From IMG/VR virus record IMGVR_UViG_3300011008_000028: DNA of 64,000 bases, one strand, 5' to 3'. Position 1 is the stretch's first letter. Each line of letters begins with the position of its first letter. A program made the translations under genes and the position numbers. The stretch comes from a virus. Taxonomy: Duplodnaviria > Caudoviricetes. The notes under the pieces were generated by a model, which saw only the letters and a list, made by a program, of their open reading frames with translations, searched no databases and had not been told where the DNA came from. Below are positions 18,195-53,241 of the stretch, piece after piece.

Positions 18195-18305
18195 TCGGCG
18201 GGCGCTATTCGGTGGTGACTCGGGTCACGGTGCTGGGGATGGTGCATTCAGTTGCTACCTGAATGGTACTGTGTCTTTTTCCTACTGGTATTTTGGCGCC
18301 CGACT
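18195..18305 (+). repeat. DGR variable-repeat-like cassette, copy 1 (intergenic, no upstream start)
   Basis: 95/111 identical to 45475-45585. Translates RRALFGGDSGHGAGDGAFSCYLNGTVSFSYWYFGARL. In-frame TAA at 18163-18165 and no ATG before the repeat. Confidence 0.85.
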
Positions 18306-18330
18306 TTTAGGAATTCATAAAAGGTCCCAA

Positions 18331-18370
18331 ACACCACACATCCGCCCAGACACGGGCGGATGTGTGGTGT
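18331..18370. terminator. 17-bp-stem hairpin: terminator of the convergent gene and/or DGR-type target hairpin
   Basis: acaccacacatccgccc-agacac-gggcggatgtgtggtgt, 25 nt after cassette copy 1. Confidence 0.7.
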
Positions 18371-18384
18371 GTTTATTGGGCAGA

Positions 18385-20937
18385 TTAAGTTGTCGGGTTC
18401 GCTTGCTGCTGAGAATTAACTCTCATACCCCATGCTTGCTGAATGTATTTGTATTCAGTGCGGAGCATTCCTGTAATGATCGGAATCATCGGGTTGTAGA
18501 GATCATTAATCGCCTGCTGAGTTGTATTAAGAACATTCTGTGAAGCGGTGTACATAGCCGTATCCTGCTCATGCTTCTTCTGAGCTTCTTCACCCTTTTT
18601 CTTTTCCTCTTCTGTCTGATTATCACTAACAGAAGGTGGCTGTTCAGTTTGCTGATCAGGTTTCAGGGAAACAACCTTATTCTTCAGCGATTGCATAGCC
18701 GCAGTAATATCATCGTTCATCTTCTTACATTCTTCATATGTTGTCATCGAAGCGGAAACATCATTAAGCCATTTCTCTACAAGAGTTTTATCAACGACCT
18801 TCTCTCCTGCAGGAATATCGCCAGCGGAAGGATTTCCGAAAAGAACCCAGTTCTGGAAAGCTTTGGGGTTCCAATCTTTAGATGCCCCATATGTGGATGA
18901 ATACAATCTGTCGTCTATACCTTCATACAGAGTCTTTCTGTATTCTTCAAGTCCACCTTCTTTAGTAGCTTTACCCAGATCACAATTGGTGATTGCTGCA
19001 ATCAATTTGTCAAGATGAGTTCCTTTGTTGTACTTATAATCAAAACACTGGATACTTCCATTGAATGTTGCCGAGGTCAGTGCATCTTTGTTCTTCTGAC
19101 ACCAATTAACGGCAGCTTTGAACTGCTGATTGGTGAAGAACTCATCCCACTTCTTCTTGATCCCCTGAAGAAGAGCAAGAATTTTGTTGATTATATCCTG
19201 GAAGGAGAATGCCTCAGAGTAATACCAATCGTCCGCCATCCCCGGTATTGTCTTGACATATTCATCATACATGTTAAGACGGTCCATCTCACTCATCAGA
19301 GAGATTACATCTGCAGCCTCAACAAAGGATCTGTTCGTATCAGGAATAGCAGACATGGTATTGATATTGCTATCATAATCACTCTTTAGAGTTCCGGGGA
19401 TCTTGATGCTTATCTCTTCTATTGCGGACTTGAAATTAGCACGTCTGAGATCATTGATCTTCATCTCAATGTCTCTGCACTTTGACAGTACAGCAACGCC
19501 TGCCGTCTTATATATCTCACTGAGTATAAATCTCATATCATTCATATACTTTAACGTGAGCGTGTTTTTCTGGTTACCAATATCAATCACAGAGTTGGAT
19601 AAGCGACGGTATATGTCAGTGATCTTGTACGCAAATAGCGTGTATGCATATATCATATCACATGCCAGCTGTTCGTAGCCCGCGACAGTATCATCCCGTT
19701 CTCCCTTGCTGTTTACAGGAGTGATATTCTTAATCACCTCGATGAGTTCAAGTAACGGGGAAGTGCTATTGCCGGTACCAAGATTCTTCGATGTGATGAA
19801 GTCTTTGAGGTTACGGAGAACCTTCTCTGGGGCAGCATCGTTGATATTGTCATCGTAGAATGCACGTATTATTGATTCGCTCATATTGGAATCAAAGATG
19901 AAGTTGTATAACGAATTCAGACTTAGCTTTGCATAGACCTTATTCTCTGCGGCCAACTTTGCGAGCTCGTTATCACTATGCCAAGTATCTCTGATGGCTT
20001 TAAGTGTAGGAATATTACCTACAGTAGTAAATGACATCAGCCACTCCGTTACCTTCTCGAGATAGTCATCGTAGTTGAATGGATCGAATATGATAGAATC
20101 GTCAATGTCCTTCATGTATGTTATTTCAGAAAGAGCCACCGCATCCGCAGCCTCGGTCACACATTCATCTTTAGTTGTAGTTCTGGGATCAACGAAGTCT
20201 CTGGCATATACTGTAATTGCATATGCCCTGCATGCGAAGGCAATCATTGTTGTCTTAACATACTCGATTATCCAGTTGCATGCTGAAGCCCTCATCTGTC
20301 CATTGAAGTACGTATACTCCTTGCTCGTCGGGTTAAGAATCACATCTGTAAGATATTCAACCGACTTCTCGATGGACTTGTATATCTCGATACGGTCGTT
20401 GTTATCAAACATATTCTTATTCTTAATGGACTTGAAGAGAGCTTTCTCCTTGTCATCGGCTTTCTGGATGTTGAATGTCATTACTTCATTCACCATCATG
20501 CCGGCATCTGCTGGTCTATCCTTGAATGCATTTCTGCATGTTATTGCAAAGAAATCGGCATACTTCGAATCCTTGGTAATGTCGGTATTCTTTGCGCCAC
20601 GGACAACCCCGTCTGTAAATTGCAGTACGGATGCATAGTCGTATGCAGCAAATATAAATGGCTTTACTCGATCATATTCAACCGAGTATGCGGTATCCAT
20701 CTTATCAGGGTTGGAATTCTGAATAGCCTTCTGAAGTTCTTTGCCGTAAGATTCCCAAGAACGCACGAACGAGTTCACACTTCCCAGGAACGTTCTTACC
20801 TTATAATCATCAACGGAGCCATTGGCTGCGGATGAACGGAATACATCGATCTTAAACTTGGTACATATTTCCGATATGCCAGTTACAGATGCCCTGAATT
20901 CTTCAGCTTTCATCGGAACGGTAAATTTGTTTATCAT
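18385..20937 (-). CDS. Probable virion (internal head) protein
   Basis: 850 aa; VTEA, FVEA, YSEA motifs resemble prohead-protease cleavage sites; late-promoter-like motif 20974-20985. Confidence 0.55.
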   Translation of the reverse strand: MINKFTVPMKAEEFRASVTGISEICTKFKIDVFRSSAANGSVDDYKVRTFLGSVNSFVRSWESYGKELQKAIQNSNPDKMDTAYSVEYDRVKPFIFAAYDYASVLQFTDGVVRGAKNTDITKDSKYADFFAITCRNAFKDRPADAGMMVNEVMTFNIQKADDKEKALFKSIKNKNMFDNNDRIEIYKSIEKSVEYLTDVILNPTSKEYTYFNGQMRASACNWIIEYVKTTMIAFACRAYAITVYARDFVDPRTTTKDECVTEAADAVALSEITYMKDIDDSIIFDPFNYDDYLEKVTEWLMSFTTVGNIPTLKAIRDTWHSDNELAKLAAENKVYAKLSLNSLYNFIFDSNMSESIIRAFYDDNINDAAPEKVLRNLKDFITSKNLGTGNSTSPLLELIEVIKNITPVNSKGERDDTVAGYEQLACDMIYAYTLFAYKITDIYRRLSNSVIDIGNQKNTLTLKYMNDMRFILSEIYKTAGVAVLSKCRDIEMKINDLRRANFKSAIEEISIKIPGTLKSDYDSNINTMSAIPDTNRSFVEAADVISLMSEMDRLNMYDEYVKTIPGMADDWYYSEAFSFQDIINKILALLQGIKKKWDEFFTNQQFKAAVNWCQKNKDALTSATFNGSIQCFDYKYNKGTHLDKLIAAITNCDLGKATKEGGLEEYRKTLYEGIDDRLYSSTYGASKDWNPKAFQNWVLFGNPSAGDIPAGEKVVDKTLVEKWLNDVSASMTTYEECKKMNDDITAAMQSLKNKVVSLKPDQQTEQPPSVSDNQTEEEKKKGEEAQKKHEQDTAMYTASQNVLNTTQQAINDLYNPMIPIITGMLRTEYKYIQQAWGMRVNSQQQANPTT

Positions 20938-21047
20938 ACAAATACATCTCCTTATAATGAATTTATTATGAGTTACACCTTGGTCAAGTCATATGTTACA
21001 TGAATAATAATCTTCACGCAATCAATATTAAAGGGACGGTGGATCAA

Positions 21048-21800
21048 ATGAAAATATATAGATGTATGTACTGTGCTTATAGCGCAATCCCCAATAAGAA
21101 TAAAAAGGGGATTCACTCTGCTAAATATATGATGGGTAAACATTATGAAACCAAACACAAGTCTATGCTTCCTCCAGATATGGACGGATATAGATTCTTT
21201 TACTGGAGTATTACTGGGAAGCAGAATGGAAGTTGCGTAATGTGTAAGTCACCTACGGATTTCAATTATGTGACCATGAAGTATTCCAGGTTTTGTAATA
21301 GCCCAGCATGCAAGCAGAAATACAAGGAAGAACGAGATCGTCGAATGATAGCCAAGTATGGGAAGGTGTATCTATTAGATGATCCGATCATGCAACAGAA
21401 GATGTTACAGGGACGGAAGATATCCGGAACTTATACTTGGTCGGATGGGGTGACCAAGTTCCCGTATGTGGGATCATATGAGCAGGATTTCCTTAGGCAT
21501 ATGGACAAAGACCTTCACTGGCCAGTTGGCGATTTGATCATGCCTAGTCCTCATACATACACATACAAGTTCAAGAATGAAGATCACTTCTATATTCCTG
21601 ATGCATTTATACCTAGCATGAACTGTGAGATTGAGATGAAATCCACAGTTCGACATGAAAAGCAAAACAATCCCGATTCCCGGGAAAAAGAGAAAATAAA
21701 AGATGAATTAATGAAATCATGTAGTAACATAATAAATTACGTTAAGATCGACGATAAGAACTATTCCGAGTTCGACGCACTTATTCAAAAGGAGGAATAA
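21048..21800 (+). CDS. Zn-finger plus PD-(D/E)xK (TnsA-like) endonuclease
   Basis: CMYC..H...H, CVMC..C...C, then GSYEQDF...YIPDAF...EIEMKS. Confidence 0.65.
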   Translation: MKIYRCMYCAYSAIPNKNKKGIHSAKYMMGKHYETKHKSMLPPDMDGYRFFYWSITGKQNGSCVMCKSPTDFNYVTMKYSRFCNSPACKQKYKEERDRRMIAKYGKVYLLDDPIMQQKMLQGRKISGTYTWSDGVTKFPYVGSYEQDFLRHMDKDLHWPVGDLIMPSPHTYTYKFKNEDHFYIPDAFIPSMNCEIEMKSTVRHEKQNNPDSREKEKIKDELMKSCSNIINYVKIDDKNYSEFDALIQKEE

Positions 21801-21803
21801 GCC

Positions 21804-22010
21804 ATGATACACGACCTAAGTCAGTACTATATCGACTTTTCCAATCGGACTAATCTTACCGACAGTGAGAAAACTTACCTCGAGAATATTCAGAATTCAT
21901 ACAGACCGATTGAAAGAGTCGAGTTCTTAACTGAGTATCTCCTGATGGCGAAGATCACCAATGATGATTTCATAACCATGACTGGTGTTCCATACGAAGC
22001 AAATCAGTGA
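21804..22010 (+). CDS. Hypothetical protein
   Basis: ORF track, AAGGAGG SD, followed by hairpin 22041-22067. Confidence 0.7.
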   Translation: MIHDLSQYYIDFSNRTNLTDSEKTYLENIQNSYRPIERVEFLTEYLLMAKITNDDFITMTGVPYEANQ

Positions 22011-22075
22011 TACTCAATTATGTTACACATAACAGAAACTATGTCAGGGAGCAATGCTCCCTGACATCATATTTT

Positions 22076-22420
22076 TCATTCTGTTTCTGCCGGGTCTTCG
22101 TTCTTATATGCGTCCAGGATGAGCGCCGTAAGAGGCATGATATCTTCGTCTTTGCAGGACATTCTAACGCCCTTCCATTCACCAGCCGTGATATCCGCGT
22201 AGTCCTTGCCGAAGGTGATATCATTTTCACCCAGGGTAATGAACACAGTGTCTTCGACGATATGTCTTACTTCATAGCCGGTATCGGTTTTGAACAGCCT
22301 AACGAACTCCTTTTCATTGTTCTGGAACTCTTTGATATAGTAGATGATGTACTCCAACGGGACGGCGTTCTTCGGAAGCTCTTTGAAAGCATCTCTACCT
22401 ATTTCATCAATAATGCTCAT
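22076..22420 (-). CDS. Hypothetical protein
   Basis: ORF track, AGGAGG SD. Confidence 0.75.
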   Translation of the reverse strand: MSIIDEIGRDAFKELPKNAVPLEYIIYYIKEFQNNEKEFVRLFKTDTGYEVRHIVEDTVFITLGENDITFGKDYADITAGEWKGVRMSCKDEDIMPLTALILDAYKNEDPAETE

Positions 22421-22493
22421 GTTATTTCCTCCTATTAATACAAAAATTAGTCTCCTTGAAGGAGACTAATTTGATGTTCTTTGATATGAATGT

Positions 22494-23027
22494 TTAATCA
22501 GTGTAACGAGACCATGTTGTGATAATCCACACCGAATGGTCTTCTGTTGGTTCAACATCGACATATGACTCATACCACGCAGCTTCTTTCTCCGTCTTGT
22601 ATGTTTTACCGTTGAGTTTGAAGAACTTTCTGATTTCCTTCTCAGAAGTCGGTCTGTTAAACTGGTACTTTCTCTTCATATAGCCATCGCCATAATTAAT
22701 GGGTTTGGAGTTGATGAACTCAGTTGTCACAACAGCCAATGCATTGGGTTCCTCGAGTTCTTCATCGATACCTATCTTAGTCGTAGTCGGGAGAAGGAAC
22801 ATTACATCGATGAGGTCATATGTTGTGTTCTGTGTGGTTATAGTAATTCCGTCCACGGTGTTCAAAACATTGGTAATGGATGAAGTATTCCAGATAGGCT
22901 TTTCCGTAATTGCGTCAACGAATGTGATATGCATGGGATCGGGCTTCATTGCTTTGAAGATCTTACCGTTTAATGCCTGACCATGACCTCCGGACATTGC
23001 CTTCCTAAGTGTATACAAGTGCGCCAT
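22494..23027 (-). CDS. Hypothetical protein
   Basis: ORF track, AGGAGGT SD. Confidence 0.75.
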   Translation of the reverse strand: MAHLYTLRKAMSGGHGQALNGKIFKAMKPDPMHITFVDAITEKPIWNTSSITNVLNTVDGITITTQNTTYDLIDVMFLLPTTTKIGIDEELEEPNALAVVTTEFINSKPINYGDGYMKRKYQFNRPTSEKEIRKFFKLNGKTYKTEKEAAWYESYVDVEPTEDHSVWIITTWSRYTD

Positions 23028-23029
23028 AG

Positions 23030-23239
23030 TTACCTCCTATTCTTGTTCGAGACGTTCAGAGCATATGCCATAAGAACTCCGGCAGTCATCAACATTACTG
23101 CTCCAACGATGAGATGTTGGATGCCTTCATTCTTCAGTTTGTCTGCCTGCTCTTCGAGACTTTCCGGAGTTGCATCCTTCGGAAGTTCGAAGTTTATCCC
23201 CGGGATGTTGTTGATGACCTGCTCGTAATCATTCATCAT
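23030..23239 (-). CDS. Small membrane-anchored hypothetical protein
   Basis: C-terminal hydrophobic helix LIVGAVMLMTAGVLMAYAL; AGGAGG SD. Confidence 0.7.
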   Translation of the reverse strand: MMNDYEQVINNIPGINFELPKDATPESLEEQADKLKNEGIQHLIVGAVMLMTAGVLMAYALNVSNKNRR

Positions 23240-23664
23240 GTTACGTTTCCTCCTGTACATTTGAATTTGGTTTCGATATCATGAATGATATCATTGAATT
23301 CCTCTAATACATCCTTATTCTTTTCGAAGGTCTTCTCGAAAATATCCAGATCGATCTCCGTTGAATCAGAACTACAAGAGGAATACATGGTCGTAAGATT
23401 TGCCCATGTGGAGCCGCCTGATACCTCGACATACATCGTATTATCTACATAGGATATTACAATGATCGTCAAGATATCAGGCTTATTGCTGGTGACTGTG
23501 AAACGACGTCTTTCCTTGCTTACTGTAACATACTTGGAAATACGTTTTGTCATTCCTTCACCGCTGGCATGATTGAATATATGCTTCAGCTGTTCGTAGA
23601 CAGGCATCATATCCATCATGCGTTTAGGTTTGAACTCAGGGAACTTAAACTTTTTAAGCATCAT
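23236..23664 (-). CDS. Hypothetical protein
   Basis: ORF track, GGAGGTG SD, TATATTAT at 23697-23704. Confidence 0.75.
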   Translation of the reverse strand: MMLKKFKFPEFKPKRMMDMMPVYEQLKHIFNHASGEGMTKRISKYVTVSKERRRFTVTSNKPDILTIIVISYVDNTMYVEVSGGSTWANLTTMYSSCSSDSTEIDLDIFEKTFEKNKDVLEEFNDIIHDIETKFKCTGGNVT

Positions 23665-23726
23665 AACACCTCCGATTTGTTATTCCCTTCATATTAATAA
23701 TATATATTTGAAAATGAAAGAAATGC

Positions 23727-23756
23727 ATGAGTCCCAGGGAATTCCCTGGGACTCAT
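23727..23756. terminator. Perfect 30-bp palindrome ending the head operon
   Basis: atgagtcccagggaattccctgggactcat. Confidence 0.75.
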
Positions 23757-23761
23757 TGATA

Positions 23762-24622
23762 TTACGAATTTAACCAATCGGTGAGGATGGACTTCGTCTT
23801 CTGACGTATTCCAGATGATGTGATCGGAGATACATATACGTTATCATTCTCTTTCAGAACAACGGAGTTGCCTGTTGCAGTTACTCCGAGAAGATCATCT
23901 GCCGTAAGATCGAATGCTTCACAGATCATGTCTGCATCTTTTGATCCAGCAACAGCCATCTTGGCAAGTTCCGGAAGGAATATAATTGTGCCAACGAAAT
24001 CTTCCATAGCCTTTACAGATTCCTGAATAGGCTGTGTTATTCTGGCCTGAGCTTCACGATGTGACGGGAACATTACCCAGTCATACGTGATGAGCTTGCG
24101 TACATGTACCACGGGCTTTGCTCCTATGGATCTCAGAGCACCGAGGACACGAGCACTGAAGCACGGTATGATTTTACCATCAACAATCTTGATTGCCATG
24201 TTCATACCATACTTGTTACTGGAGTCAGTCTGAATGGTAGCGATAAGAAGATTGCCTTCAAGACGAGGTGAACGGATGAAGTGAGAAGATCTATTGGCAT
24301 CAGGTGTGGAGATCCTCTGCATTGTAAGTTCTTCACCTTGTTTCTGAGCAGATGGGTGATCCATCTCACCAATCCAGGAGTTGTTCTTCAACCATGTCTG
24401 AATCTGCTCATCTGTCTGGATGCAATTCCATACATTCTCGGCTTCATACATTCTCTTGTTACGATTCAGAACGCCGAACGACTGCAGTATGGCATCAAAT
24501 ATCAGATAGAATCTATTACCCTTATCGAATACCTGATAGCCGAAGTTATTACGGTAGTCATCTGTAAACGATGTCTGTTCATGAATATAACACAGGGTTT
24601 CAAGATATTTAGGATCAATCAT
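23762..24622 (-). CDS. Prohead (head maturation) protease, T4 gp21/phiKZ gp175-like
   Basis: NRNKRMY, IGEMDHP, CFSARVLG, LITYDWVMFPSH..A. Confidence 0.85.
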   Translation of the reverse strand: MIDPKYLETLCYIHEQTSFTDDYRNNFGYQVFDKGNRFYLIFDAILQSFGVLNRNKRMYEAENVWNCIQTDEQIQTWLKNNSWIGEMDHPSAQKQGEELTMQRISTPDANRSSHFIRSPRLEGNLLIATIQTDSSNKYGMNMAIKIVDGKIIPCFSARVLGALRSIGAKPVVHVRKLITYDWVMFPSHREAQARITQPIQESVKAMEDFVGTIIFLPELAKMAVAGSKDADMICEAFDLTADDLLGVTATGNSVVLKENDNVYVSPITSSGIRQKTKSILTDWLNS

Positions 24623-25746
24623 TATGATCCACCTTCCTTCTCTTCTGTGATGGGAATATCAAAGAGCTCTTCCGCCGACTTTCCAAACTCGAGAACAAAG
24701 TCATCATCCTTAGTGTTATTTTTGATCTGAGGATTCTCCTTATTGATAGCAGTAGCAACTTCCTTCTCAGTTTCACACAGCTGTGCTCTGAGTTTCTCCG
24801 CCTTCTTTTGGTAAGCTTCAATTGTTGCTTCCTGCTTCTTAATTATGACTTCCTTCTTCTTCTCGTCCATGTTCTTGATGTTCTTCAGTTGGTCTATGTT
24901 CATCTTGATGAACTGACACTGCTGATCAAGAGCGGAGATGGTATCTGCTTTCTTCTTGTACTTCAGATACAGACCGGAACGAATCAGAGGAACTATACCG
25001 AAGAGAGAGTTCTTGACACCCTTTACAGCATGAACTGCCAGAGAACCGATCTTCTTACCGCCGGTGATAGCAACATCGATTGCCTGGAGCATCTCGTCAA
25101 CAGCACCTTCCATCATTACAGATTCCTGATAGTTGGAAGGACCCACATCATCGATGGACTTGAGCATTGTTTCAAGATACTGCTTGTGATCTCTACTGGT
25201 GAGCTGCTTTGCATAGTCTGTAAGCATTCTTGCTATGACACCGTTGGTCTGGGCAGATTTCTTCTTGATCTTGATATCGGTACCATTGGATACAACATCA
25301 ACATTGGTAGCCATGATCATTGACAAACCTGTCACCAGCAAATATGCAGCGGTTTCATACTCGTAAACAACCAGACGGGCTTTCTTAGTATATCCCTCAC
25401 TGTACAGAGCAGTGAACTCTTCAAGCTTCTTGAAGATGTTTCTGCAGTCTGTAAGCATTCCAAGATTAGAAACGTTCTTCGATAGGAAATCAATGGAGAA
25501 CTTGATGTTCTCATAAGAATCAAAGTTCTTGATGTTACCTTTCGTTTCACTGATTCTCGTGTCGGTTCCCTTCTTGGAGAGCTGGTCTATAGACTTCACG
25601 AAGTTACGAAGATAACCATAACCTGTCGAAGTATTCTTATTCACATTCTCAGCCGCTTCTGTATATACAGGGGAGAGAACATTTGTCGTACCGGAAATGA
25701 TTTCCATGTAGTCATGTGTAATATTATATGCACTCATTGTATTCAA
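24622..25746 (-). CDS. Probable virion head protein
   Basis: Adjacent to the protease; YTEA, YQES, MMEG, VLEF motifs; C-terminal coiled coil. Confidence 0.55.
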   Translation of the reverse strand: MNTMSAYNITHDYMEIISGTTNVLSPVYTEAAENVNKNTSTGYGYLRNFVKSIDQLSKKGTDTRISETKGNIKNFDSYENIKFSIDFLSKNVSNLGMLTDCRNIFKKLEEFTALYSEGYTKKARLVVYEYETAAYLLVTGLSMIMATNVDVVSNGTDIKIKKKSAQTNGVIARMLTDYAKQLTSRDHKQYLETMLKSIDDVGPSNYQESVMMEGAVDEMLQAIDVAITGGKKIGSLAVHAVKGVKNSLFGIVPLIRSGLYLKYKKKADTISALDQQCQFIKMNIDQLKNIKNMDEKKKEVIIKKQEATIEAYQKKAEKLRAQLCETEKEVATAINKENPQIKNNTKDDDFVLEFGKSAEELFDIPITEEKEGGS

Positions 25747-25759
25747 TCTCCCTTCTATA

Positions 25760-32278: not shown

Positions 32279-32997
32279 AGATTACTCATCTCCCTTTGGA
32301 CGATTTGCACAAACGGTATTAGAATATTCCTGTAATTGTATTCCGGATTAATTACAGCCGACATGTTGTTGAATTCCAGATAGTATTCTTCATCAAGATC
32401 ATTTCCCTTGTATTTCATAATGAAGTTAATCAAATACCTTCTTACCGTAACATCTCGACTTTCAATTCGAGATATCATCGTTGATAAGAATTCCAACATT
32501 GTCAATCTATGTCTGTTGAGACCGATATCTCCTATACCCTTCACGTCCAATTTATCTTTTGAATAATATATCTCCACATTGTGAATGTTAGGGAAGTGAA
32601 TATATGAGCTATACCTATTCTTCTCGACGAATACTACCTGACCAAACTTGAGCCGTTTACATGGGGCGAATGTAAATATCGCATCCTTCTTTACGGAGAT
32701 CATCTTTTCCGATGTCAACCCATTTGCCTGTATGAAAACATCTCTCACTTCGGCAAACTTGTCAAGAAACTTTTCCGCAAACACCTTATCATCTCGCTGT
32801 AAGATTCCTATTGCTTTATGGCGTTCAAATCCCTTCTCGAGGAGTTCAAGCTCTTTAATCTTCTGCAAAGGTAGTAATCGGAATTCTTTGATTATACTGA
32901 AACCAGCATCTCGGATATCATACTCAATGATCTCTTCATTGAATAGGTAATCGATTTCTGGGTTGGTCCAGGTTGTCATTTGTGGTCTGTAATCCAT
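32257..32997 (-). CDS. Divergent family-B DNA polymerase palm-like protein
   Basis: IIEYDIRDAGFSII (motif A-like) and ISVKKDAIF (motif C-like); only 246 aa. Confidence 0.5.
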   Translation of the reverse strand: MDYRPQMTTWTNPEIDYLFNEEIIEYDIRDAGFSIIKEFRLLPLQKIKELELLEKGFERHKAIGILQRDDKVFAEKFLDKFAEVRDVFIQANGLTSEKMISVKKDAIFTFAPCKRLKFGQVVFVEKNRYSSYIHFPNIHNVEIYYSKDKLDVKGIGDIGLNRHRLTMLEFLSTMISRIESRDVTVRRYLINFIMKYKGNDLDEEYYLEFNNMSAVINPEYNYRNILIPFVQIVQREMSNLWMNEST

Positions 32998-34348
32998 CTT
33001 TAACCTCCTTTACATATTTACCGTATATATTCATAACATATCCCTTCTGGGACGTAATATACCGGTTAAGATATTTTGCAACTTTAATAAGAATCTGAGG
33101 ATCCCGAACCTTTACCAATGTCTCAATCCTTTTATCAATCTTATGAGTTACAAGATCCAACGAGCCAATGTAAATATCCGGGTTCTTCTTCCCAAAGCAG
33201 TATACCCTGGAGTGTTCCAGTTTGTCCCACACAATGGACTTTATATGGACATTCATAAACATATTCCAGTCTGGGAGCCACGTGCATACCCCACGAATGA
33301 TAAGATCCATAGTGCATCCTTTTGATGCGGCCTTATACAGAGCTTCAATGATTTCATTATCATCAAGAGCATTGCATTTGAAACAGATATAGCCATCGGC
33401 ATGAGACTGACTTTTTATCAGCTTCAGCAATGCCTTTCGAGCATTGTATCTGGTAACAAGGAAGTTTGAATTGAACACCGTATCTTTTATCCGTTTTCCT
33501 TTTAAGATCGAGAATACTTTGTCGACCTGATGACATATAGAATCATCTGCAGTAACTAAAGAAAGATCAGTGTATTGGGTCGTGGTCTTGGTGTGGTAAT
33601 TTCCAGTACCAATCTGAGCAACAGATTTCCCATTGATGAATTTCACCAATGTAAGTTTGCAATGGACTTTCAGTCGCTCATATCCGTATGCTGTAACACT
33701 GCATCCGATGCTCTCAAACTTCTGCATCCACTCGTAGTTGATATCTTCACCGGATGCACACAGCTCGATGTTAACATGAACTTTGACACCGCGTTCTACA
33801 GCGTTATTTATGATATCGAATATTGCTGGGTCCTTGCCTATCCGATACAGACATAGTTTGATCTCTGTAACGTCCTTGTTATTGGCTGCTTCTTCCAGGA
33901 ATGACAAATAATCTCTGAAAGAATCCAGTGGATATTCGATTAGTTGATCTCTCATAAAGATATCGAAATAGCGGCTAGGACGGAACCACTGTTGTTCTTC
34001 CTTCTTCACAGGTAAGTACTTCTCTACTATAGAAATCATAGAGGAAATATCCGAACATCCGGAAATATCTATGTTATAGAACTTATTCAGATCTTCTGTT
34101 ATGAATTTCAAATTTTCCATGACTTGATCACAATCATTAGAGTAATCATCAATCACCATGCTAACATCGTACTTTGAGATCATCTCTTCAGTATTTGATA
34201 TGAAGACCATATTGAAGAATAACGCTTCTTTGATTTTCTCCAGGGACAGCATATCCGGTGAGGCTATATAATGACCTTGTGCCAGCACACGTTCATTGAA
34301 CATCATCAATGATTGTATCATTGGGATTTGTTTAATTAATTTTTGCAT
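32936..34348 (-). CDS. ppk1: Polyphosphate kinase 1, shortened
   Basis: FNERVLAQ, IKLCLYR, KVHCKL, IGTGNY, YTDLSL, KCNALDD, LIIRGVC, LEHSRVY, YIGSLDL. Confidence 0.85.
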   Translation of the reverse strand: MQKLIKQIPMIQSLMMFNERVLAQGHYIASPDMLSLEKIKEALFFNMVFISNTEEMISKYDVSMVIDDYSNDCDQVMENLKFITEDLNKFYNIDISGCSDISSMISIVEKYLPVKKEEQQWFRPSRYFDIFMRDQLIEYPLDSFRDYLSFLEEAANNKDVTEIKLCLYRIGKDPAIFDIINNAVERGVKVHVNIELCASGEDINYEWMQKFESIGCSVTAYGYERLKVHCKLTLVKFINGKSVAQIGTGNYHTKTTTQYTDLSLVTADDSICHQVDKVFSILKGKRIKDTVFNSNFLVTRYNARKALLKLIKSQSHADGYICFKCNALDDNEIIEALYKAASKGCTMDLIIRGVCTWLPDWNMFMNVHIKSIVWDKLEHSRVYCFGKKNPDIYIGSLDLVTHKIDKRIETLVKVRDPQILIKVAKYLNRYITSQKGYVMNIYGKYVKEVKDGLQTTNDNLDQPRNRLPIQ

Positions 34349-37193: not shown

Positions 37194-37225
37194 CTACGAA
37201 AAGGTTCAAGATGAGCCGAATGGTG

Positions 37226-37669: not shown

Positions 37670-37712
37670 CGTGATTCATCTCCTTTGTTTTAATGTTACA
37701 TATATCGTTTAT

Positions 37713-38447: not shown

Positions 38448-38454
38448 TCCCTCC

Positions 38455-38904: not shown

Positions 38905-39006
38905 TCATATCACCTCTACAAAAAGATTACTTCTCGGTTTAGAGGCTGCATAAATACAAAAGAGAAGCAGGGGGTAACCCCCTGCTTCTCCATATCCAAC
39001 ACACTC

Positions 39007-39708
39007 TCACATGTCGAGATCGACATGCGGTATGGGAGCGTCATCGACGACATCATCGATCACGTCATCAGCCGCTACAACGTCATCTTCGGAGATATCA
39101 ACCGCATCCGGGTTGTCATCGACTTCGTTGAGCTTCTTCTTGTGATTGTGAACGATTATTGCCGTTGTGGTTACGCCTGCAGCAATGATCGCGGCGGCGA
39201 TAACACTGATAAGAATGATCTTTGTCTTGCGGTTCTTGCGGTATTCTTCGCTGAGTGCAGCTAGTGTAAGAACTTCTGTAGGACCAATCCTGAGACGGCC
39301 AATTGCCTGCGGACCGCTGAGGAGATACTCGGTAAGTGTCTTCTTGTTTACCTTCTCGGGCTTCAGAGACTCAACCACAGTAGATGCCGAAACATCAATA
39401 TCTGTATCCTCTTCCTCAGCAGTGGCAATAACGGAATCTTCGACCTCCATAAGAGTATCGAGATTCGTCGAGATCTCCGCCAGTTCAGCAGTCGTTGCAG
39501 GCGCCTTGTTGAACTTGAGATAAAGTTCACCCTTCTTCTCGAGCATTTCCGCACCGAAGATTGCCATGATCACTCCGGCATTGATTGCCGCCCTCTGCTG
39601 ATCGCAGTACGTGGAATCCCACTTGTCCGACTCGATGTTTGACTTGATCGCATTGATTGTCTCGGGCATTTCATTGATTATACCCTGTGCATATGTTATT
39701 TTTGCCAT
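39007..39708 (-). CDS. Membrane-anchored hypothetical protein with acidic tail
   Basis: TM helix IILISVIAAAIIAAGVTTTAIIV, D-rich C-terminus. Confidence 0.75.
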   Translation of the reverse strand: MAKITYAQGIINEMPETINAIKSNIESDKWDSTYCDQQRAAINAGVIMAIFGAEMLEKKGELYLKFNKAPATTAELAEISTNLDTLMEVEDSVIATAEEEDTDIDVSASTVVESLKPEKVNKKTLTEYLLSGPQAIGRLRIGPTEVLTLAALSEEYRKNRKTKIILISVIAAAIIAAGVTTTAIIVHNHKKKLNEVDDNPDAVDISEDDVVAADDVIDDVVDDAPIPHVDLDM

Positions 39709-39724
39709 GATAGTTTCCTCCTTA

Positions 39725-40093
39725 TTACTTCTTGGCAGTGTGTTGGATGACTTTCGATATCAGGCTTATTAAGTCTGAATCCTCAATGGTCATGGTTTCA
39801 TTCCCGATACTTCCTGATATTTTGAAGATTCTTTTTAGTATCTTATATTCAAGCTGTAGCTTGAAAGGAATGCCTTTGGTTTCTTCGATACCAACGATTG
39901 GGTTGATCGTAACTGTGAGATTACTGATTTTTGGTTTGGCACATGCCTGAACCAATATACTCACATGATTCCCATCCGGTGCATCGAATATTAATTTTCC
40001 TTGCCAGGTATCCGGCTTAAGTGACAACTTCAGGTTGCTACACAATTCCTTGTTGTCAACCATGATCGGACCTGGCGGAAGTTTTAGAAGCAT
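39725..40093 (-). CDS. Hypothetical protein
   Basis: ORF track, AAGGAGG SD, TATATTAT at 40140-40147. Confidence 0.7.
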   Translation of the reverse strand: MLLKLPPGPIMVDNKELCSNLKLSLKPDTWQGKLIFDAPDGNHVSILVQACAKPKISNLTVTINPIVGIEETKGIPFKLQLEYKILKRIFKISGSIGNETMTIEDSDLISLISKVIQHTAKK

Positions 40094-40172
40094 TTAGTAA
40101 CCCTCCTTTTCAGTAATATTTCTTTTGCTTCTTAATTTAATAATATATACGTGAAAATTCGGGTTATTCCAT

Positions 40173-40931
40173 TTACTTCATTGCATCGATAATATACGAT
40201 ATCGGCTCTGATAATTCCAGTTCCTCGGGCAAAGGCTCTGTGTACTTCTTATCAACAAAGAACTCGTACAAGACAAAAATATCATATATTTTCGAATACC
40301 AACTCCACAATGTGAGTTCGTTTTTGTTAGCTAGGTTATGTAGCATCTGTCTCATCATTGCAGGGATGTCTCTGGAGCCGGTATGATAACCGAAAGAGAT
40401 TGCTCTTTCATTGAGCTGTTGCAAACGAGGGTCATCTCGGTAACCGTTTCCTGCAATGATTGCCATTATGGTCTCATGTATCCCTGCTTCCTTGCGAATG
40501 TATGTTGCCAGGGCATTGTGAATCAACAATCCGATTCGCTGTGGAGTACCAACTCTTTTGTATGATCGTAAGGCGTCAATGGCGGATTGAGCGGAAACAA
40601 ATCGTTTGATCGGAATTATAGCAGGGAGTATGTCGGAATAGTTATGAATATGCATGTAAATAACATATTCATTATTGGAATTTATCCCCAGTAGATACTC
40701 AGGTGCTTTATCTTCAGTATTGACCTTTCGATCACCAATGTATACTTCTGGATGCCCTGGTTTGGCATCTTTGATTACATATGTAACTGATGGATCATGG
40801 GTCTGTTTCAAATCATACCATTCTCTGGTTACATACTCAACTCTGTTTGGGTTGAATGCATCCCACTGTTTGGTGAGATCTACCTCAATAACTCTGGTGT
40901 TATTGTTAATATTATTATCAGTACTAAGCAT
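40173..40931 (-). CDS. Hypothetical protein
   Basis: ORF track, GGAGGT SD. Confidence 0.75.
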   Translation of the reverse strand: MLSTDNNINNNTRVIEVDLTKQWDAFNPNRVEYVTREWYDLKQTHDPSVTYVIKDAKPGHPEVYIGDRKVNTEDKAPEYLLGINSNNEYVIYMHIHNYSDILPAIIPIKRFVSAQSAIDALRSYKRVGTPQRIGLLIHNALATYIRKEAGIHETIMAIIAGNGYRDDPRLQQLNERAISFGYHTGSRDIPAMMRQMLHNLANKNELTLWSWYSKIYDIFVLYEFFVDKKYTEPLPEELELSEPISYIIDAMK

Positions 40932-41002
40932 GATACTGTACCTCCAATGAAAATATATATTATAATGATGGGTGGAAATAAACTAATGAAAGGAAATGTG
41001 AT

Positions 41003-41293
41003 ATGAAAGATAAGAATGAATATATCTATGCAATAGATACTGAGAAATATTTTCACGAAGCAAAACCCGTCGGGAAGATATATGATTTATGGCGAATTCC
41101 ATGTAGTAATCCAGGCCCAGGGATCAAACTAGCCAGGTTCAAATATGACCATACATCAAAGTCTTGGCTATGGTTAAGTTTCGAAATGTTCAAAGATTTC
41201 GTCAAATATCAAAACATATTGACATATATCAAAAATTTCAATACCAAGGAGGAAGTCATCAGATGGAATTCGATGAAAAGTTTATTGAAGTAG
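41003..41293 (+). CDS. Hypothetical protein
   Basis: ORF track, AAAGGA SD, TATATTAT at 40956-40963. Confidence 0.65.
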   Translation: MKDKNEYIYAIDTEKYFHEAKPVGKIYDLWRIPCSNPGPGIKLARFKYDHTSKSWLWLSFEMFKDFVKYQNILTYIKNFNTKEEVIRWNSMKSLLK

Positions 41294-44200
41294 AAGCAGG
41301 AGAGATCACCAAGAAATGGCAAAGTGTATATGCGTACAACATTGTCATCGCCAGGATGATCCCAGAATTGATTGATGGTCTCAATCCTGTTAAGCGCAGA
41401 GCTATCTATACTATGTTTCTAAAAGATGGAGGGAAGAATTTCAGGAAGGTGTTAGCGATTTCGGGAGACACCGTCGGTAAGGTCCATCCTCATTCCAGCA
41501 CTTCAATCGAAAGTGCAATTGTGGGGATGGGACAGCCATGGAAAAATACGATCCCCCTAATCGAAAGAAAAGGTAATTACGGGACCTGCTATGATGAGGA
41601 TACAGAAGTATTGGTATTGGGTTATGCAGATGCTCCTAATACGGTATCATGGGTAAAATGGAAAGATTTCTATGATAAATGTTCAGGGAAGCTCGGTTCC
41701 TGTGATATTGAAACCGGTGAATGGTTATGGGAGGAACCTAGCAACCTTGTCAAGTACAATATGAAAGAAAGATATGCCGATGAACCTGAGAAGATGATCA
41801 TGATTGTCGGTAAGAACTCCGGAGCAGGTGGAGCTCCTGGTGGAGCAGTTGACTCTTCCGGAGGTGGACAGACAGGGGTAAGCTCTACCGCTGGTGCTCC
41901 TACAAATGATCCATCCTTGAATAACCCTATCGATTTAGGCGAAACCCCTCCTGCACCTGGTGGGGCAAATAAGTTCATCGACTTCATGGTTACCGAAGAT
42001 CATAACATGGTCATCAAGGCCGTGTCTCCTGCTCCCGATGAAGATAAGTTTGAATTCCGTAAAGCAAATGATCTTCCTGATGTATTCCAGACTAAGGTCA
42101 AGGATATCATAATTCCGGAAGAGAGGAAAGGATTCGGCGAGAAACACATTCTCCCTACTCCCAACATGGAACCATATGGACTGTGGCAGCCTGATACAGA
42201 GTACAAGGATCCAGATGATCTTGTGTGGGTAGTTGATGCATTTGGCAAATCAGATCTCCCGATGAATATCTTCTTGAAGGTGATATCTGTCTTCCTGGCA
42301 TATGGTAAACTCACAACGGAAGACAAGATTGAACTCAATGACGATGCAACGAAGGTTGATCTGGATGATCTGAAAGGGCTGTTTGAGTTCGAGGATGACA
42401 CCCATATTACTGATGGGAACATTGTGGCATTCTTCAAAGGATATGATGAACCGATCATGCCTCCTACAGAAGAAGGTGAAGGAGGCGAGGAAGAAGCGGA
42501 AGAGGAAGAATATCCGGCATTCATCCCATATGGGATATTCATGATGAATACCGAGAATATCGAAACATTCTTCTCGACATATGCTGAAGTAACTCAGTCG
42601 TCTCCTCTGATGATCAAAACCACAACACAGGATATCCAGTATCAATTCCAGGCATTGGCTGTTATGACAAGCAAGTTCACATCATTGGGGCAAACCGATC
42701 CTGAATGTAAGCATCCTGTTGGTAAGGCCCAGGCAGGAAAGTTCAAATACATCGTTGAATGCAAACCTGAATTCGAACCTCGAATCGAGAAGAAGACGGC
42801 AATCAGTACTGTTGAGTACAAAGGTGATGTTTACTGTGCTGAGATGCCTACACATCACACCATGGTCACCAGACGTAATGAAGTCACACTGATTGCAGGT
42901 AACTGCTCCGGTGATAGTGCAGGCGCTCCTCGTTACATTCAGGCAAAGCTCTCTGAATATGCTCAGGCATGTTACTTCGAAGACTGGAAAGATTCCGTTG
43001 TTGATATGGAACTTGCATATGATGAAGAGACAATGATGCCTAACTATCTCCCGGCCAAGTACCCGAATGTATTGGTCAACGGCTGTTTGGGTGTTGCATA
43101 TGGTATCTCGGTACAGATTCCATCGTACAACTTCAAAGAAGTTCTTGATGCGACAATCATGTTGATGAGAGATCCAAATGCAAATATCATTCTGATACCA
43201 GATTCTCCTACGGGAGCGGACATCATCGAGGCCGACTTCGGAGCAATCACGAAACGCGGCAAAGGCGTATATATGCAGAGATGCCGGTATGAGATTGATC
43301 CCGAAAGCAACATGATCACAATTACAGCACTTCCCGAGCGTAGTACAGCAAATGCTGTTCGTGAGACCATTGCAAATATCAAGGAGAAGGGTGGACTGTC
43401 TGAACTTCTGGCAATGAATGATCTCTCCGGTGTTGATATCAAGATCGAACTGATCATTCGTGATGACGTAAATCCATACAAGTTCATGAAGAAGTTGATC
43501 TCACAGGTAGCTGGGCTTGAACAGTCATACCCTGTAACAGTACGAGTGACATCCGACTATATGCTCTTCAAATATTCCATCCCGCAAGTATTGCTTGAAT
43601 GGATCAAGTGGAGAAGGGAACAGAAACGAACTGTCCTGTCTAACAAGAGAGGAACATTGTACGGAGAGCAGAGAGTTAATGATATCAAACTCTTCATCAT
43701 GAACCCGCAGAATCTGAAGGATACACTGGATATTTTCAGACACTCTCACAACCGACAGGAGATTGAAGAGAAGCTGATTGCCAAGTATCGTCATACCGAG
43801 ATCATGATGGATTCCGTTCAGGCTCGTGCTCTGTCTAACATGAGAATGATCGAACTAACGATCGATGCTTATGAAGGATATAAGAAAAGGGCAGAAGAAA
43901 TCCGCAAGGAACTGCAGGAGATCGAGGACACACTGAATGCGGATGACGGTGTTGACAAGGTAATCATTGCGGAACTGAGAGAAGGTATTAAACGTTTCGG
44001 GAAACCAAGACGTTCAAGAGTTGTTCCATACCAGATTTCTGTATCCAATGAGGTCGATGGTTGGTGCATACTGCAGCTGTCTTCGGACGGTACAATCATT
44101 CGAATTCCGGCAACCAACGCAGATACTGAACCCGTTCCTACCGATACCAATGGATTTGCATGTCTGGTAGATAATGACGCTTCGTTCATTCTGATAGATG

Positions 44201-44928
44201 ATAAGGGATTCCATACATTTATTCGGGTCAAGGAACTGCCGGTGAACTCTGAAGTTCCTGTGTTCCGGTATTCCAAGAAACCATTGGATGGGAAGGTTGT
44301 TGCAATGCTTCCATTCGATATCGAGTCGGATAAGTGTTGTACATTGATATCCAGACAGGGTGTTGTCAAGAAGGTTCGCATTGCCGATATTGGCCCGTCA
44401 AAGAAGCCGATAATCACAATCGACAAGGATGATCGGATTGTGAAGGGAATCGTACTCAGAGCAAAGTCTCAGAAGGATCTCCTTATATATACCAAGAATG
44501 GTATGGGACAGAGACTTGATCCTAACTCCATCCGGATCACCTCCCCATCTGCCAAGGGTATGAATGGATTCAAACTGAAGAATGATGATGAGATATGCGG
44601 AGTATATTCAATCTCCCCAGAAGAGAATTCGTATCTGTTGTATGTAACAGCCAAGGGTAAGATGAGACTTAACCTCATTGACTATCTCCCTACCAGAGAA
44701 TCCAAACATGATTCAATGGTGCAGCTCATCATGCTTAATGACAGAGATAAGCTGGTGGCTGTTGCCGGTTGTAACAAACTCGACAAGGCAACGGTGTACT
44801 ATGATGACTCTGATTCGGAGACTATCGATATTAGCAAACTTCCGGAGTCTACAATGGCAAGTGAACCCAAGAAGGTCACATCGAAGAATGCGGTATCAAA
44901 CAACATTACCAAGGTCAAAATAAACTAA
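41263..44928 (+). CDS. gyrA: Type IIA topoisomerase subunit A (GyrA/ParC-like) containing an intein
   Basis: RMIPELIDGLNPVKRR, GKVHPH, GNYG, GDSAGAPRY (catalytic Tyr), PNVLVNG, beta-pinwheel-like CTD; start MEFDE after AAGGAGG. Confidence 0.9.
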   Translation: MEFDEKFIEVEAGEITKKWQSVYAYNIVIARMIPELIDGLNPVKRRAIYTMFLKDGGKNFRKVLAISGDTVGKVHPHSSTSIESAIVGMGQPWKNTIPLIERKGNYGTCYDEDTEVLVLGYADAPNTVSWVKWKDFYDKCSGKLGSCDIETGEWLWEEPSNLVKYNMKERYADEPEKMIMIVGKNSGAGGAPGGAVDSSGGGQTGVSSTAGAPTNDPSLNNPIDLGETPPAPGGANKFIDFMVTEDHNMVIKAVSPAPDEDKFEFRKANDLPDVFQTKVKDIIIPEERKGFGEKHILPTPNMEPYGLWQPDTEYKDPDDLVWVVDAFGKSDLPMNIFLKVISVFLAYGKLTTEDKIELNDDATKVDLDDLKGLFEFEDDTHITDGNIVAFFKGYDEPIMPPTEEGEGGEEEAEEEEYPAFIPYGIFMMNTENIETFFSTYAEVTQSSPLMIKTTTQDIQYQFQALAVMTSKFTSLGQTDPECKHPVGKAQAGKFKYIVECKPEFEPRIEKKTAISTVEYKGDVYCAEMPTHHTMVTRRNEVTLIAGNCSGDSAGAPRYIQAKLSEYAQACYFEDWKDSVVDMELAYDEETMMPNYLPAKYPNVLVNGCLGVAYGISVQIPSYNFKEVLDATIMLMRDPNANIILIPDSPTGADIIEADFGAITKRGKGVYMQRCRYEIDPESNMITITALPERSTANAVRETIANIKEKGGLSELLAMNDLSGVDIKIELIIRDDVNPYKFMKKLISQVAGLEQSYPVTVRVTSDYMLFKYSIPQVLLEWIKWRREQKRTVLSNKRGTLYGEQRVNDIKLFIMNPQNLKDTLDIFRHSHNRQEIEEKLIAKYRHTEIMMDSVQARALSNMRMIELTIDAYEGYKKRAEEIRKELQEIEDTLNADDGVDKVIIAELREGIKRFGKPRRSRVVPYQISVSNEVDGWCILQLSSDGTIIRIPATNADTEPVPTDTNGFACLVDNDASFILIDDKGFHTFIRVKELPVNSEVPVFRYSKKPLDGKVVAMLPFDIESDKCCTLISRQGVVKKVRIADIGPSKKPIITIDKDDRIVKGIVLRAKSQKDLLIYTKNGMGQRLDPNSIRITSPSAKGMNGFKLKNDDEICGVYSISPEENSYLLYVTAKGKMRLNLIDYLPTRESKHDSMVQLIMLNDRDKLVAVAGCNKLDKATVYYDDSDSETIDISKLPESTMASEPKKVTSKNAVSNNITKVKIN
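41587..42903 (+). mobile_element. Intein (439 aa) with degenerate LAGLIDADG region
   Basis: N-terminus CYDEDTEVL, block B VTEDHNM, block F/G YKGDVYCAEMPTHHTMVTRRN...IAGN followed by Cys+1. Removal restores GNYGT-CSGDSAGAPRY. Confidence 0.88.
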
Positions 44929-44931
44929 ACA

Positions 44932-44957
44932 AAAGGCAGGGTTTAAACCCTGCCTTT
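44932..44957 (+). terminator. Intrinsic terminator after gyrA
   Basis: aaaggcagggtttaaaccctgccttt followed by a T-rich tract. Confidence 0.8.
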
Positions 44958-44980
44958 ATTTTATATTTTGGAGGTAAATC

Positions 44981-45175
44981 ATGTTAATCGATTCGAAATA
45001 TTATCCAAGATATGTTTGGGTTGTTAGTTATTGTGATGGCAATGATAATGAGCCAACCGTTACGGTGTTTGACAATAAAGAAGCAGCAGAAAAATGTTAT
45101 GATGCATTTAAGGAAGGTCATAACCGAGTTGCGATTGATGAAGCGCCGGTTTATAAGCAATTCAATTTATTATAA
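44981..45175 (+). CDS. Hypothetical protein
   Basis: ORF track, GGAGGT SD. Confidence 0.75.
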   Translation: MLIDSKYYPRYVWVVSYCDGNDNEPTVTVFDNKEAAEKCYDAFKEGHNRVAIDEAPVYKQFNLL

Positions 45176-45204
45176 AATCAATTTGTTCATGGAGGAGGGA
45201 TAAA

Positions 45205-45453
45205 ATGGAGCCTAACCTAAAATTTACCATTACTGATACTACCAAATTTGAAGAAGGTATAGACGGCCCTTGTGTTATCAAAGGTGCTGACAAGGGTATC
45301 GATATTGTCTTCATTAGAATCACTGATTCTAAAGTAAAATTTAAAGGCAATCAAGATACGATCCGTCAAATTGCTCGATCTAATCATATCAGTATGAACA
45401 AAGCTCGGAAACGATTTGCAAGGATTTATCGCGCCATCGTTAACATCTCATAG
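45205..45453 (+). CDS. Hypothetical protein
   Basis: ORF track, GGAGGAGG SD. Confidence 0.75.
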   Translation: MEPNLKFTITDTTKFEEGIDGPCVIKGADKGIDIVFIRITDSKVKFKGNQDTIRQIARSNHISMNKARKRFARIYRAIVNIS

Positions 45454-45474
45454 TCATATGCTTCTCTTAAGAAA

Positions 45475-45585
45475 TCGGCGGGCGCTATTCGGTGGTCACT
45501 CGTATCACGGTGCTTCAGATGGTGCATTCTATTGCGACCTGACTGGTACTGTGTCTGGTTCCAACTGGAATATTGGCGCCCGCCT
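45475..45585 (+). repeat. DGR variable-repeat-like cassette, copy 2 (inside a possible 68-aa mini-ORF 45458-45664)
   Basis: Translates RRALFGGHSYHGASDGAFYCDLTGTVSGSNWNIGARL(SLKP); followed by hairpin acatccc-attc-gggatgt (45630-45647); ATG 45458 has no SD. Confidence 0.85.
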
Positions 45586-53233: not shown

Positions 53234-53241
53234 TATGAAAA

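Follow-up and report, generated by a model that had tools for sequence, protein, structure and literature searches.

In the usual view of diversity-generating retroelements (DGRs), a single template rewrites the ends of genuine genes. In Neisseria pilE/pilS, Borrelia vlsE and Treponema pallidum tprK, promoter-less, 5'-truncated and dispersed partial copies of the variable part of an expressed surface gene are kept, with short anchors. In this study, we analyzed a 64,000-nt stretch (hereafter the window) of the virus record IMGVR_UViG_3300011008_000028 (Caudoviricetes), in which two variable repeats (VRs) of a DGR lie 27 kb apart and outside any credible gene, and followed them to their template, their target gene and further gene-less copies, here called cassettes, on the same phage genome.

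Remote extra VRs have been described inside genes, including the second distal VR of gut prophages (PMC12629997), and in the definition of Roux et al. the VR is part of the coding sequence (PMC8144416). Truncated or non-coding VRs are unmentioned by Wu et al. (PMC5758913), and a single VR outside any identifiable open reading frame (ORF) was mentioned for Pelodictyon by Schillinger et al. (PMC3521204). We found no description of a whole family of gene-less VR cassettes in the searchable literature; present detection pipelines look for VRs close to the RT and inside genes. An earlier note, made from the window's letters alone, had not recognized the arrangement as a described DGR architecture. 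As read from its sequence, the system is a canonical DGR with a non-canonical and essentially undescribed appendage.

Two variable repeats, their template and their lack of a gene

A repeat search of the window returned a gap-free direct repeat of 114 nt with 85% identity between positions 18192-18305 (copy 1) and 45472-45585 (copy 2). A 21-mer common to both copies occurs exactly twice in the window, with 0 occurrences expected in 100 shuffles. The earlier note had reported 111 nt with 16 mismatches, and a codon table in the ALFGG...GAR frame reproduces its codon list, with 14 of the 16 mismatches at codon positions 1-2. The varied codons of copy 1/copy 2 are all NNY, except GGG/TCA and CGA/CGC. 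Both copies have a G+C content of about 57% (vs 41% for the genome), and neither is A-rich.

The same phage is present in one ENA assembly and three JGI samples, all from one study, and a contig walk covered the region from 45 kb before to 100 kb after the window start. The DGR was located in the distal end of the ENA contig, from which it extends into JGI contig Ga0139361_1000069 (locus L014, reversed relative to the window). It spans approximately +90.8 to +94.3 kb in window coordinates, on the minus strand and 46.7 kb past copy 2, and consists of a 545-aa target gene whose last 41 codons form its variable repeat (VR0), a non-coding template repeat (TR) and a reverse transcriptase (RT) (Table 1). 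The target matches PHROG 5302 'tail protein' over its full length, and a structural model of its residues 290-545 (predicted local distance difference test score 89) best matches TaqVP 5VF4 (E 3e-8), then Mtd and then the formylglycine-generating-enzyme fold, so that VR0 is predicted to end a tail-fibre protein with a C-type-lectin-like fold. The RT matches PF00078 (E 1e-21) and PHROG 1423 (E 5e-99). Its best phage relatives are the RTs of known DGR-bearing Butyrivibrio, Faecalibacterium and Bordetella phages, the first two being the nearest. It has a YMDD box, and LGFYTSH occupies the place of the usual DGR-RT motif [ILV]GxxxSQ, which it approximates. On these matches the RT can be assigned to the DGR lineage.

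The TR core reads GGT GGT AAC TCG AAT AAC GGT GCT AAA GAT GGT GCA TTC AAT TGC AAC CTG AAT AAT ACT GTG TCT AAT TCC AAC TGG AAT ATT GGC GCC. A single unseen template had been predicted for both copies, and the TR matches that prediction over the whole 91-nt core, with GAT and AAT at the two codons left undetermined. The predicted ends fared differently: the 5' 'cgg cgg gcg cta ttc' and the 3' 'cgA' belong to the cassette, not to the TR. Immediately 3' of GGCGCC the TR continues as ATGCTGCG and VR0 as CGCCTCTCCCTGAAACCGACCGC, which is the usual divergence between IMH* and IMH (initiation of mutagenic homing) elements.

All 16 differences between copy 1 and the 91-nt TR core fall at TR adenines, as do all 12 of copy 2, leaving 0 changes at the 64 non-adenine TR positions; this is the pattern that the earlier note had proposed to look for. 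Within the core, the two copies differ from each other at 15 sites. The corresponding counts for the other alleles are 13/13 (cassette D), 17/17 (G), 13/14 (VR0) and 13/15 (H), and over the six distinct alleles (copy 1, copy 2, D, G, H and VR0) 84 of 87 differences are at TR adenines, which make up only 27 of the 91 TR positions. Since the differences from the TR lie essentially only at its adenines, each allele has evidently passed through adenine-mutagenic reverse transcription from this TR.

The alleles behave almost like independent draws, and the excess of derived bases common to them is marginal (P = 0.024 overall; P = 0.26 for the orphan copies alone). For the BPP-1 RT, a context bias has been published by which AAC tends to become TAC, and AAT to become GAT or GGT (PMC12875486). 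These changes match the states seen here and account for the weak excess, and common ancestry of the diversified states was rejected. The possibility that the cassettes are themselves TRs was also rejected, because they are not A-rich and carry IMH rather than IMH*. It had already been claimed that neither copy is the template, and both the base composition and the IMH of copy 2 agree.

We then consider whether the copies belong to genes. A tblastn search of the window with the target returned only residues 505-545, at the two copies; the homology begins exactly at residue 505 (ALFGG), and no upstream target homology was found at either. No RT was detected in the window by tblastn with the phage's own RT or by Pfam analysis of the larger ORFs (no RVT match). 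Both results bear out the view that neither copy ends a lectin-fold gene and that the window is devoid of an RT. Copy 1 has 0 in-frame ATG, GTG or TTG codons, and its frame reads on into the next gene, antisense to it; the in-frame ATG of copy 2 lacks a Shine-Dalgarno ribosome-binding site. Across the family there is no common start, and one member is frame-shifted by an indel. The gene lists of the ENA contig contain no call over copy 2 or cassette D, and the cassette peptides have no homologue, among either short proteins of similar length or longer ones, in a collection of 5.8 billion protein clusters. Moreover, a cassette encodes 41 residues, whereas the lectin domain requires about 200. 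It is confirmed, from these sequence comparisons, that copies 1 and 2 lie in no credible gene and do not end a protein-coding target. The suggestion that they might encode diversified mini-peptides is contradicted by the missing conserved start and frame. An alternative genetic code or a frameshift fusion to the upstream ORFs was rejected as well, the upstream 82-aa and 170-aa proteins being dissimilar to the target.

Several side observations concern the DGR itself. The spacer between the TR and the RT (…CCTGACCTC(T/A)TGGTC(A/G)AAAT…GTAGCC(T/C)GTCGAAA…GGGGATAA; L014 7880-7990) is conserved in a related jumbo-phage fragment (L043; record G002, ~22,700-22,830, minus strand), whose TR is 9 kb from its VR, and is probably a priming or spacer structure of the DGR RNA. 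A second match in G002 was considered as an orphan cassette and rejected, since it is the TR of that record. In one sample (L046 ~989, minus strand; IMG/VR contig 3300011008_000071; protein P0003), the target gene has a 33-nt in-frame deletion at the 5' edge of VR0, which takes out SGTTFALFGGS, including the nearly invariant ALxGG motif and the first 13 core positions. An N-to-D change in P0003 was rejected as an adenine mutation, as it is the junction of this deletion.

The cassette family

Seven cassettes (A, D, E, F, G, H and I) were read by means of a degenerate core pattern in IMG/VR and the contig walk; E is copy 1 and F is copy 2. Their positions and the parts of the two window copies are listed in Table 1. 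The expectation of a full-length target with further orphan copies was thus realized, as one lectin-fold target and additional gene-less cassettes. Cassette A has no upstream gene, adjoins a divergent promoter and has the same leader as D and I; because it has no gene upstream, VR0 is the only full-length target found.

Both window copies are intergenic. Copy 1 has the promoter region of the minus-strand gene 16674-18089 on one side and the terminator-like hairpin at 18331-18370 on the other. Copy 2 starts 19 nt past the TAG of an 82-aa ORF (45205-45453) and is 5' of the promoter of the NAD-dependent ligase gene. The two have TCGGCGG in common and differ at their 3' ends: copy 2 keeps the 23-nt IMH of VR0 with two hairpins, one of them formed by pairing of AGGGAGA in its tail with TCTCCCT of the IMH, whereas the homology of copy 1 to VR0 and the other cassettes stops after GGCGCCCG, leaving CG as the sole IMH remnant, followed by the 17-bp hairpin.

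All cassettes and VR0 have the 8-nt GCGCTATT 5' of the core, and most cassettes also have the 23-nt IMH; neither is in the TR. The cassettes further have a non-genic leader. Its GC element is complementary to the 3' GGCGCCCGCC, and a TATAAA(A)G box is found in the leaders of A, D, E, G and I. The alignment of the G and D leaders scores 61, which 0 of 500 shuffles reach, and the E leader resembles both by eye; shuffle alignments show no significant similarity of the leader to the TR flank or to the part of the target gene that precedes VR0. Because the VR-specific flanks (GCGCTATT and IMH) and the leader are foreign to the TR, the cassettes are to be regarded, on sequence grounds, as DNA copies of a VR module and not as plain insertions of TR complementary DNA (cDNA). 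Pure ectopic cDNA retrohoming, which had been raised as one origin of the copies, is contradicted by the same features.

The ends of the cassettes differ in a graded manner. At the 5' side, a segment of ~32 nt between the GC element and GCGCTATT is present in A, D, G and I and missing from E and F, and H is leaderless, being cut at core position 14. At the 3' side the ends are nested: F and H extend 27 nt past the IMH and D 12 nt past it, while G ends within the IMH, E after its CG and I inside the core. The ends are thereby nested truncations of a master element of ~260 nt.

Copying of cassettes is apparent from identical alleles. Over the 75 nt in which they overlap, H and I have one allele, down to two non-adenine changes. 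The two are 20 kb apart on opposite strands, and each is interior to a contig; cassettes are therefore copied as DNA. The core of A equals the VR0 allele at 91/91 positions, including the non-adenine change T83G, behind a leader of the orphan type. In the assembly holding A, VR0 has the 33-nt deletion that includes its first 13 core positions, and A is intact, so that at least the 5' part of A could not have been borrowed from VR0 reads. Cassette G is present in sample 3300011008 and precisely deleted (137 nt) in sample 3300011005, with the leader and IMH left abutted and the breakpoints at the base of a GGCGGGCG/CGCCCGCC stem. Taken together, the cassettes have evidently been copied, truncated and deleted at the DNA level. 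Four contig ends fall inside cassettes, including the end of a 118.7-kb IMG/VR contig that starts at window +82,009. A rule relating cassette strands to replication orientation was rejected, because GC skew tracks gene orientation and the strands are mixed. With regard to miniature inverted-repeat transposable elements or repetitive extragenic palindromes, the cassettes have GC-rich inverted arms, but flanking matches of only 6-7 nt.

Table 1. Locations of the cassettes, of the parts of copies 1 and 2, of the DGR components and of a recurrent intergenic motif (window coordinates, or positions on locus L014)
Feature	Location	Strand	Remarks
Copy 1 (E) leader, non-genic, common to cassettes	18181-18201	+	TATAAAAG box 18187-18194; 5' GC element GGCGGGCGC 18197-18205
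Copy 1 variable repeat	18202-18302	+	VR-specific GCGCTATT 18202-18209; TR-homologous core 18210-18300; then CG
Copy 1 3' flank CCGACTTTTAGG	18300-18311	+	Inverted complement of 18185-18198 (CCTATAAAAGTCGG); closes stem round variable part
Terminator-like 17-bp hairpin	18331-18370	+	29 nt past copy 1, just before stop of minus-strand gene 18385-20937; from terminator scan
Copy 2 (F) degenerate leader	45472-45489	+	5' GC element GGCGGGCGC 45477-45485; VR-specific GCGCTATT 45482-45489
Copy 2 TR-homologous 91-nt core	45490-45580	+	Identical in independent ENA assembly
Copy 2 IMH-like element CGCCTCTCCCTGAAACCGACCGC	45581-45603	+	Same as sequence after VR0 in target; unlike TR (IMH*)
Copy 2 tail GGAAGGGAGAATCAAGAGACTTGGAAA	45604-45630	+	Entire tail also in cassette H; first 12 nt in D
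Hairpin, 7-bp stem, 4-nt loop (ACATCCC ATTC GGGATGT)	45630-45647	+	3' of copy 2; read from sequence
Cassette A	~-96.0 kb (= +200.6 kb)	+	
Cassette D	~-29.5 kb	+	
Cassette E (copy 1)	~+18.2 kb	+	
Cassette F (copy 2)	~+45.5 kb	+	
Cassette G	~+105.2 kb	+	
Cassette H	~+153.6 kb	-	
Cassette I	~+174.3 kb	+	
Target gene, 545 aa	L014 5728-7365		Last 41 codons = VR0; then stop codon and hairpin
TR, non-coding, 91-nt core	L014 7731-7821		~360 nt beyond stop/hairpin of target
RT, 369 aa	L014 8056-9165		PF00078 match
(T)TAATAATATATAT / GATATATTAT motif	18111-18138, 23687-23714, 2602-2654, 40118-40158, 45686-45715, 54832-54876		

Origin and possible role of the cassettes

The core of the original inference, that the copies are independently adenine-mutagenized VRs whose RT and target lie elsewhere, is supported by the TR, RT and target on the same phage. 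As for what the cassettes are, we lean with moderate confidence towards 5'-truncated bystander copies of the VR end of the single DGR target, spreading and decaying by DNA recombination. The cassettes that keep an IMH (F, D, G and H) would be bystander targets edited in trans by the RT and TR, since retrohoming requires only cis elements and not a gene. When the BPP-1 DGR was placed in E. coli, target modules were edited at ~5000 chromosomal sites (PMC12875486), which argues that gene context is irrelevant to DGR editing. The IMH-less cassettes (E and I) would be frozen copies. The family may then spread and decay by recombination as mostly non-adaptive baggage, yet able to exchange alleles with the expressed VR0.

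Several observations weigh against the bystander account. The leader with its TATAAA box is conserved, and the closing stem around the variable part is kept in two shifted registers (D-type CGGGCGCCA/TGGCGCCCG and E-type GGCGGGCG/CGCCCGCC), and both give an impression of design more than of junk. A search for target-site duplications at the cassettes found none: direct repeats in their flanks do not exceed 7 nt and are inconsistent. The identity of A and VR0 is as compatible with an archive of alleles as with a by-product. All available assemblies, which come from one study, have the same copy 2 and the same VR0 and give no direct sign of current diversification. Finally, the template had been expected to adjoin an RT and avd; the TR and RT were found, but an Avd-like accessory gene was not. 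The 82-aa and 121-aa neighbouring ORFs have no Pfam, NCBIfam or PHROG function match, and the interval from VR0 to the RT contains no ORF of a size suiting Avd, although sequence searches could miss a divergent accessory protein.

It is possible, but in our judgement doubtful, that the cassettes form an adaptive archive, i.e. silent promoter-less stores of receptor-binding alleles that undergo gene conversion with VR0, anchored on GCGCTATTCGGTGGT and the IMH. Such stores would add a memory of earlier alleles to de novo DGR mutagenesis, with the IMH-less E and I protected from overwriting. Carried further, and offered just as tentatively, this would make a two-layer system in a lytic jumbo phage, in which a DGR is combined with a scattered gene-less library trading alleles by gene conversion and the IMH-less members are write-protected memory. 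Archiving combined with gene conversion had been among the readings first proposed, and part of it gains from our data: A carries the exact expressed allele behind an orphan leader, the allele common to H and I indicates that copying at the DNA level occurs, and the layout of 5'-truncated, start-less and dispersed copies with conserved anchors is like that of silent-cassette systems. The adaptive use fares less well. The transfer between A and VR0 could run either way, and A is at a contig end, so that the remainder of its core could derive from VR0 reads; no mosaic tracts were seen. Members decay, as E, H and I are truncated and G has been lost from one sample, and the anchors are just 15 and 29 nt. 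The DGR itself would also scramble the IMH-bearing cassettes. Furthermore, a target of this family is encoded in 24 IMG/VR records, among them 10 with a completeness of at least 90% and two fragments of jumbo phages. Each has at most one VR and one TR, so that an archive is not a conserved trait; the leader and IMH sequences were found in no other IMG/VR phage.

We consider it improbable that the cassette is an expressed structured RNA or DNA element. On this reading the TATAAA box would drive a short transcript in which a loop of ~100 nt, hypervariable in sequence, is closed by a 9-bp stem and has hairpins after it, and the element would act either as RNA or, in modulating retrohoming, transcription termination or recombination, as a cruciform. 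The conserved leader and box in A, D, E, G and I, the complementarity to the 3' GC element preserved in two registers and the deletion breakpoints of G at the stem base would be consistent with it. In single-stranded DNA folds, the closing stem around the variable part occurs in E, F and D and is absent from VR0 and the TR. For copy 1 it is in both the minimum free energy and the centroid structure (z = -2.5; 3 of 200 shuffles equally stable). The copy 2 fold (z = -3.94; 0 of 200 shuffles as stable) has a 9-bp stem (45477-45485 / 45576-45584), directly followed by the tail/IMH hairpin. In D, the stem is in the centroid structure only (z = -0.15), so greater stability than in shuffles is confined to E and F. 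On the other hand, no Rfam family matches the cassettes, TATAAA does not recur as a promoter over the 145 kb examined, and there is no sigma-70-like site before copy 1. The degenerate leader of copy 2, the leaderless H and the dispensability of G in one population also speak against such an element, and the variable positions keep a protein codon pattern inherited from the TR.

That each cassette is the remnant of a separate full-length paralogous target deleted in place is very unlikely and largely refuted: D does lie just 3' of a 912-aa tail-fibre gene with N-terminal repeats in common with the DGR target, and D-type leaders have ~30 nt faintly (not significantly) like the target upstream of VR0, but copies 1 and 2 stand among replication genes (RNase H, gyrase/topoisomerase, ligase), the cassettes have one non-genic leader in common, their homology to VR0 starts at the same 5' boundary, no residual upstream target homology was found, and identical alleles at different sites (H and I, A and VR0) demand copying.

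The host phage and comparison with known systems

From its gene content, the source appears to be a jumbo phage distantly related to AR9/phiKZ, and a genome of ~297 kb, circular or permuted, is implied. To judge from the relatives of its RT, it probably infects a Firmicute. The window encodes a gyrase/topoisomerase IV-like protein, NAD ligase, RNase H, polyphosphate kinase, NAD-salvage enzymes and a prohead protease. The neighbouring DNA encodes a divergent family-B DNA polymerase with 24-27% identity to AR9/PBS1-type and other jumbo-phage polymerases, as well as an RNA polymerase beta-like fragment, a chaperonin and tail fibres. A DNA search against isolated phages found no relative, and initial searches of viral contigs found neither relatives of the ligase nor the exact shared 21-mer. 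Two pattern scans of metagenome contigs gave no match, the first pattern being blind to VR0 (T83G) and to the TR (IMH*).

The ENA contig (147 kb) differs from the window at 4 positions in 22 kb (48293, 48301, 48309 and 41643), the first three exactly 8 nt apart within the ORF 47859-48425. A 36-nt intergenic indel distinguishes the ENA and JGI assemblies beside an HNH-endonuclease gene (L004 ~2969 vs L005 ~3005; window ~+70.0 kb). A 107-nt inverted repeat with 98% identity, unrelated to the VR cassettes, is located at window ~-19,900 (L006 ~8964) and +82,009 (L054 1-107), and these sites are contig ends in two assemblies.

The gene for the anaerobic ribonucleotide reductase NrdD (window 4793-7955, minus strand) appears divided into two ORFs, both matching Pfam NRDD, by an ORF of 239 aa. 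The latter has faint helix-turn-helix matches and resembles a mobile insertion or an interruption of the homing-endonuclease type; Rfam reported no group I intron at this site at its gathering threshold. Auxiliary metabolism genes occur at window 32936-34348 and 50794-54128; they encode a protein resembling polyphosphate kinase and a set for NAD salvage, the latter comprising an isochorismatase-family nicotinamidase, nicotinate phosphoribosyltransferase, a nucleotidyltransferase and NAD synthase. The intergenic motif (T)TAATAATATATAT / GATATATTAT recurs 5' of genes in both orientations and is probably the early or middle promoter of the phage. It is likewise found beside cassettes E and A, in the direction of the adjoining divergent gene.

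The cassettes show that a VR-IMH module is able to multiply and to change its place in a genome, and DGRs could plausibly recruit new target genes in this way. They are also a source of assembly breaks and mis-annotation. If the archive were real, it would constitute a new diversification layer, in which hypermutation is joined to a silent-cassette archive. With the RT, TR, target and cassettes all on one phage genome, the system is well suited to experiment.

Compared with canonical phage DGRs (Bordetella BPP-1 Mtd/TR/Brt and those of Hankyphage, Faecalibacterium and Butyrivibrio phages), the phage likewise has a DGR-type RT, a non-coding TR rich in AAY codons, a VR at the 3' end of a lectin-fold tail protein with adenine-specific differences and a hairpin after it, and IMH and IMH* elements that diverge right after a common GC element. 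It departs from them in its gene-less VR copies, scattered over ~297 kb in both orientations with their own leader and closing stem, in the RT motif LGFYTSH instead of one ending in SQ, and in that no Avd-like gene was found. In the DGRs with multiple or remote targets (Treponema, Legionella and cyanobacteria; PMC12629997, PMC3521204), one TR and RT likewise serve several VRs in trans, some of them far away, but there the extra VRs end real genes, unlike the cassettes. With the silent-cassette systems the phage has in common the partial dispersed copies, the conserved short anchors and one cassette (A) identical to the expressed allele; in contrast to those systems, its diversity arises by adenine-mutagenic reverse transcription rather than by accumulated divergence, and its members are decaying.

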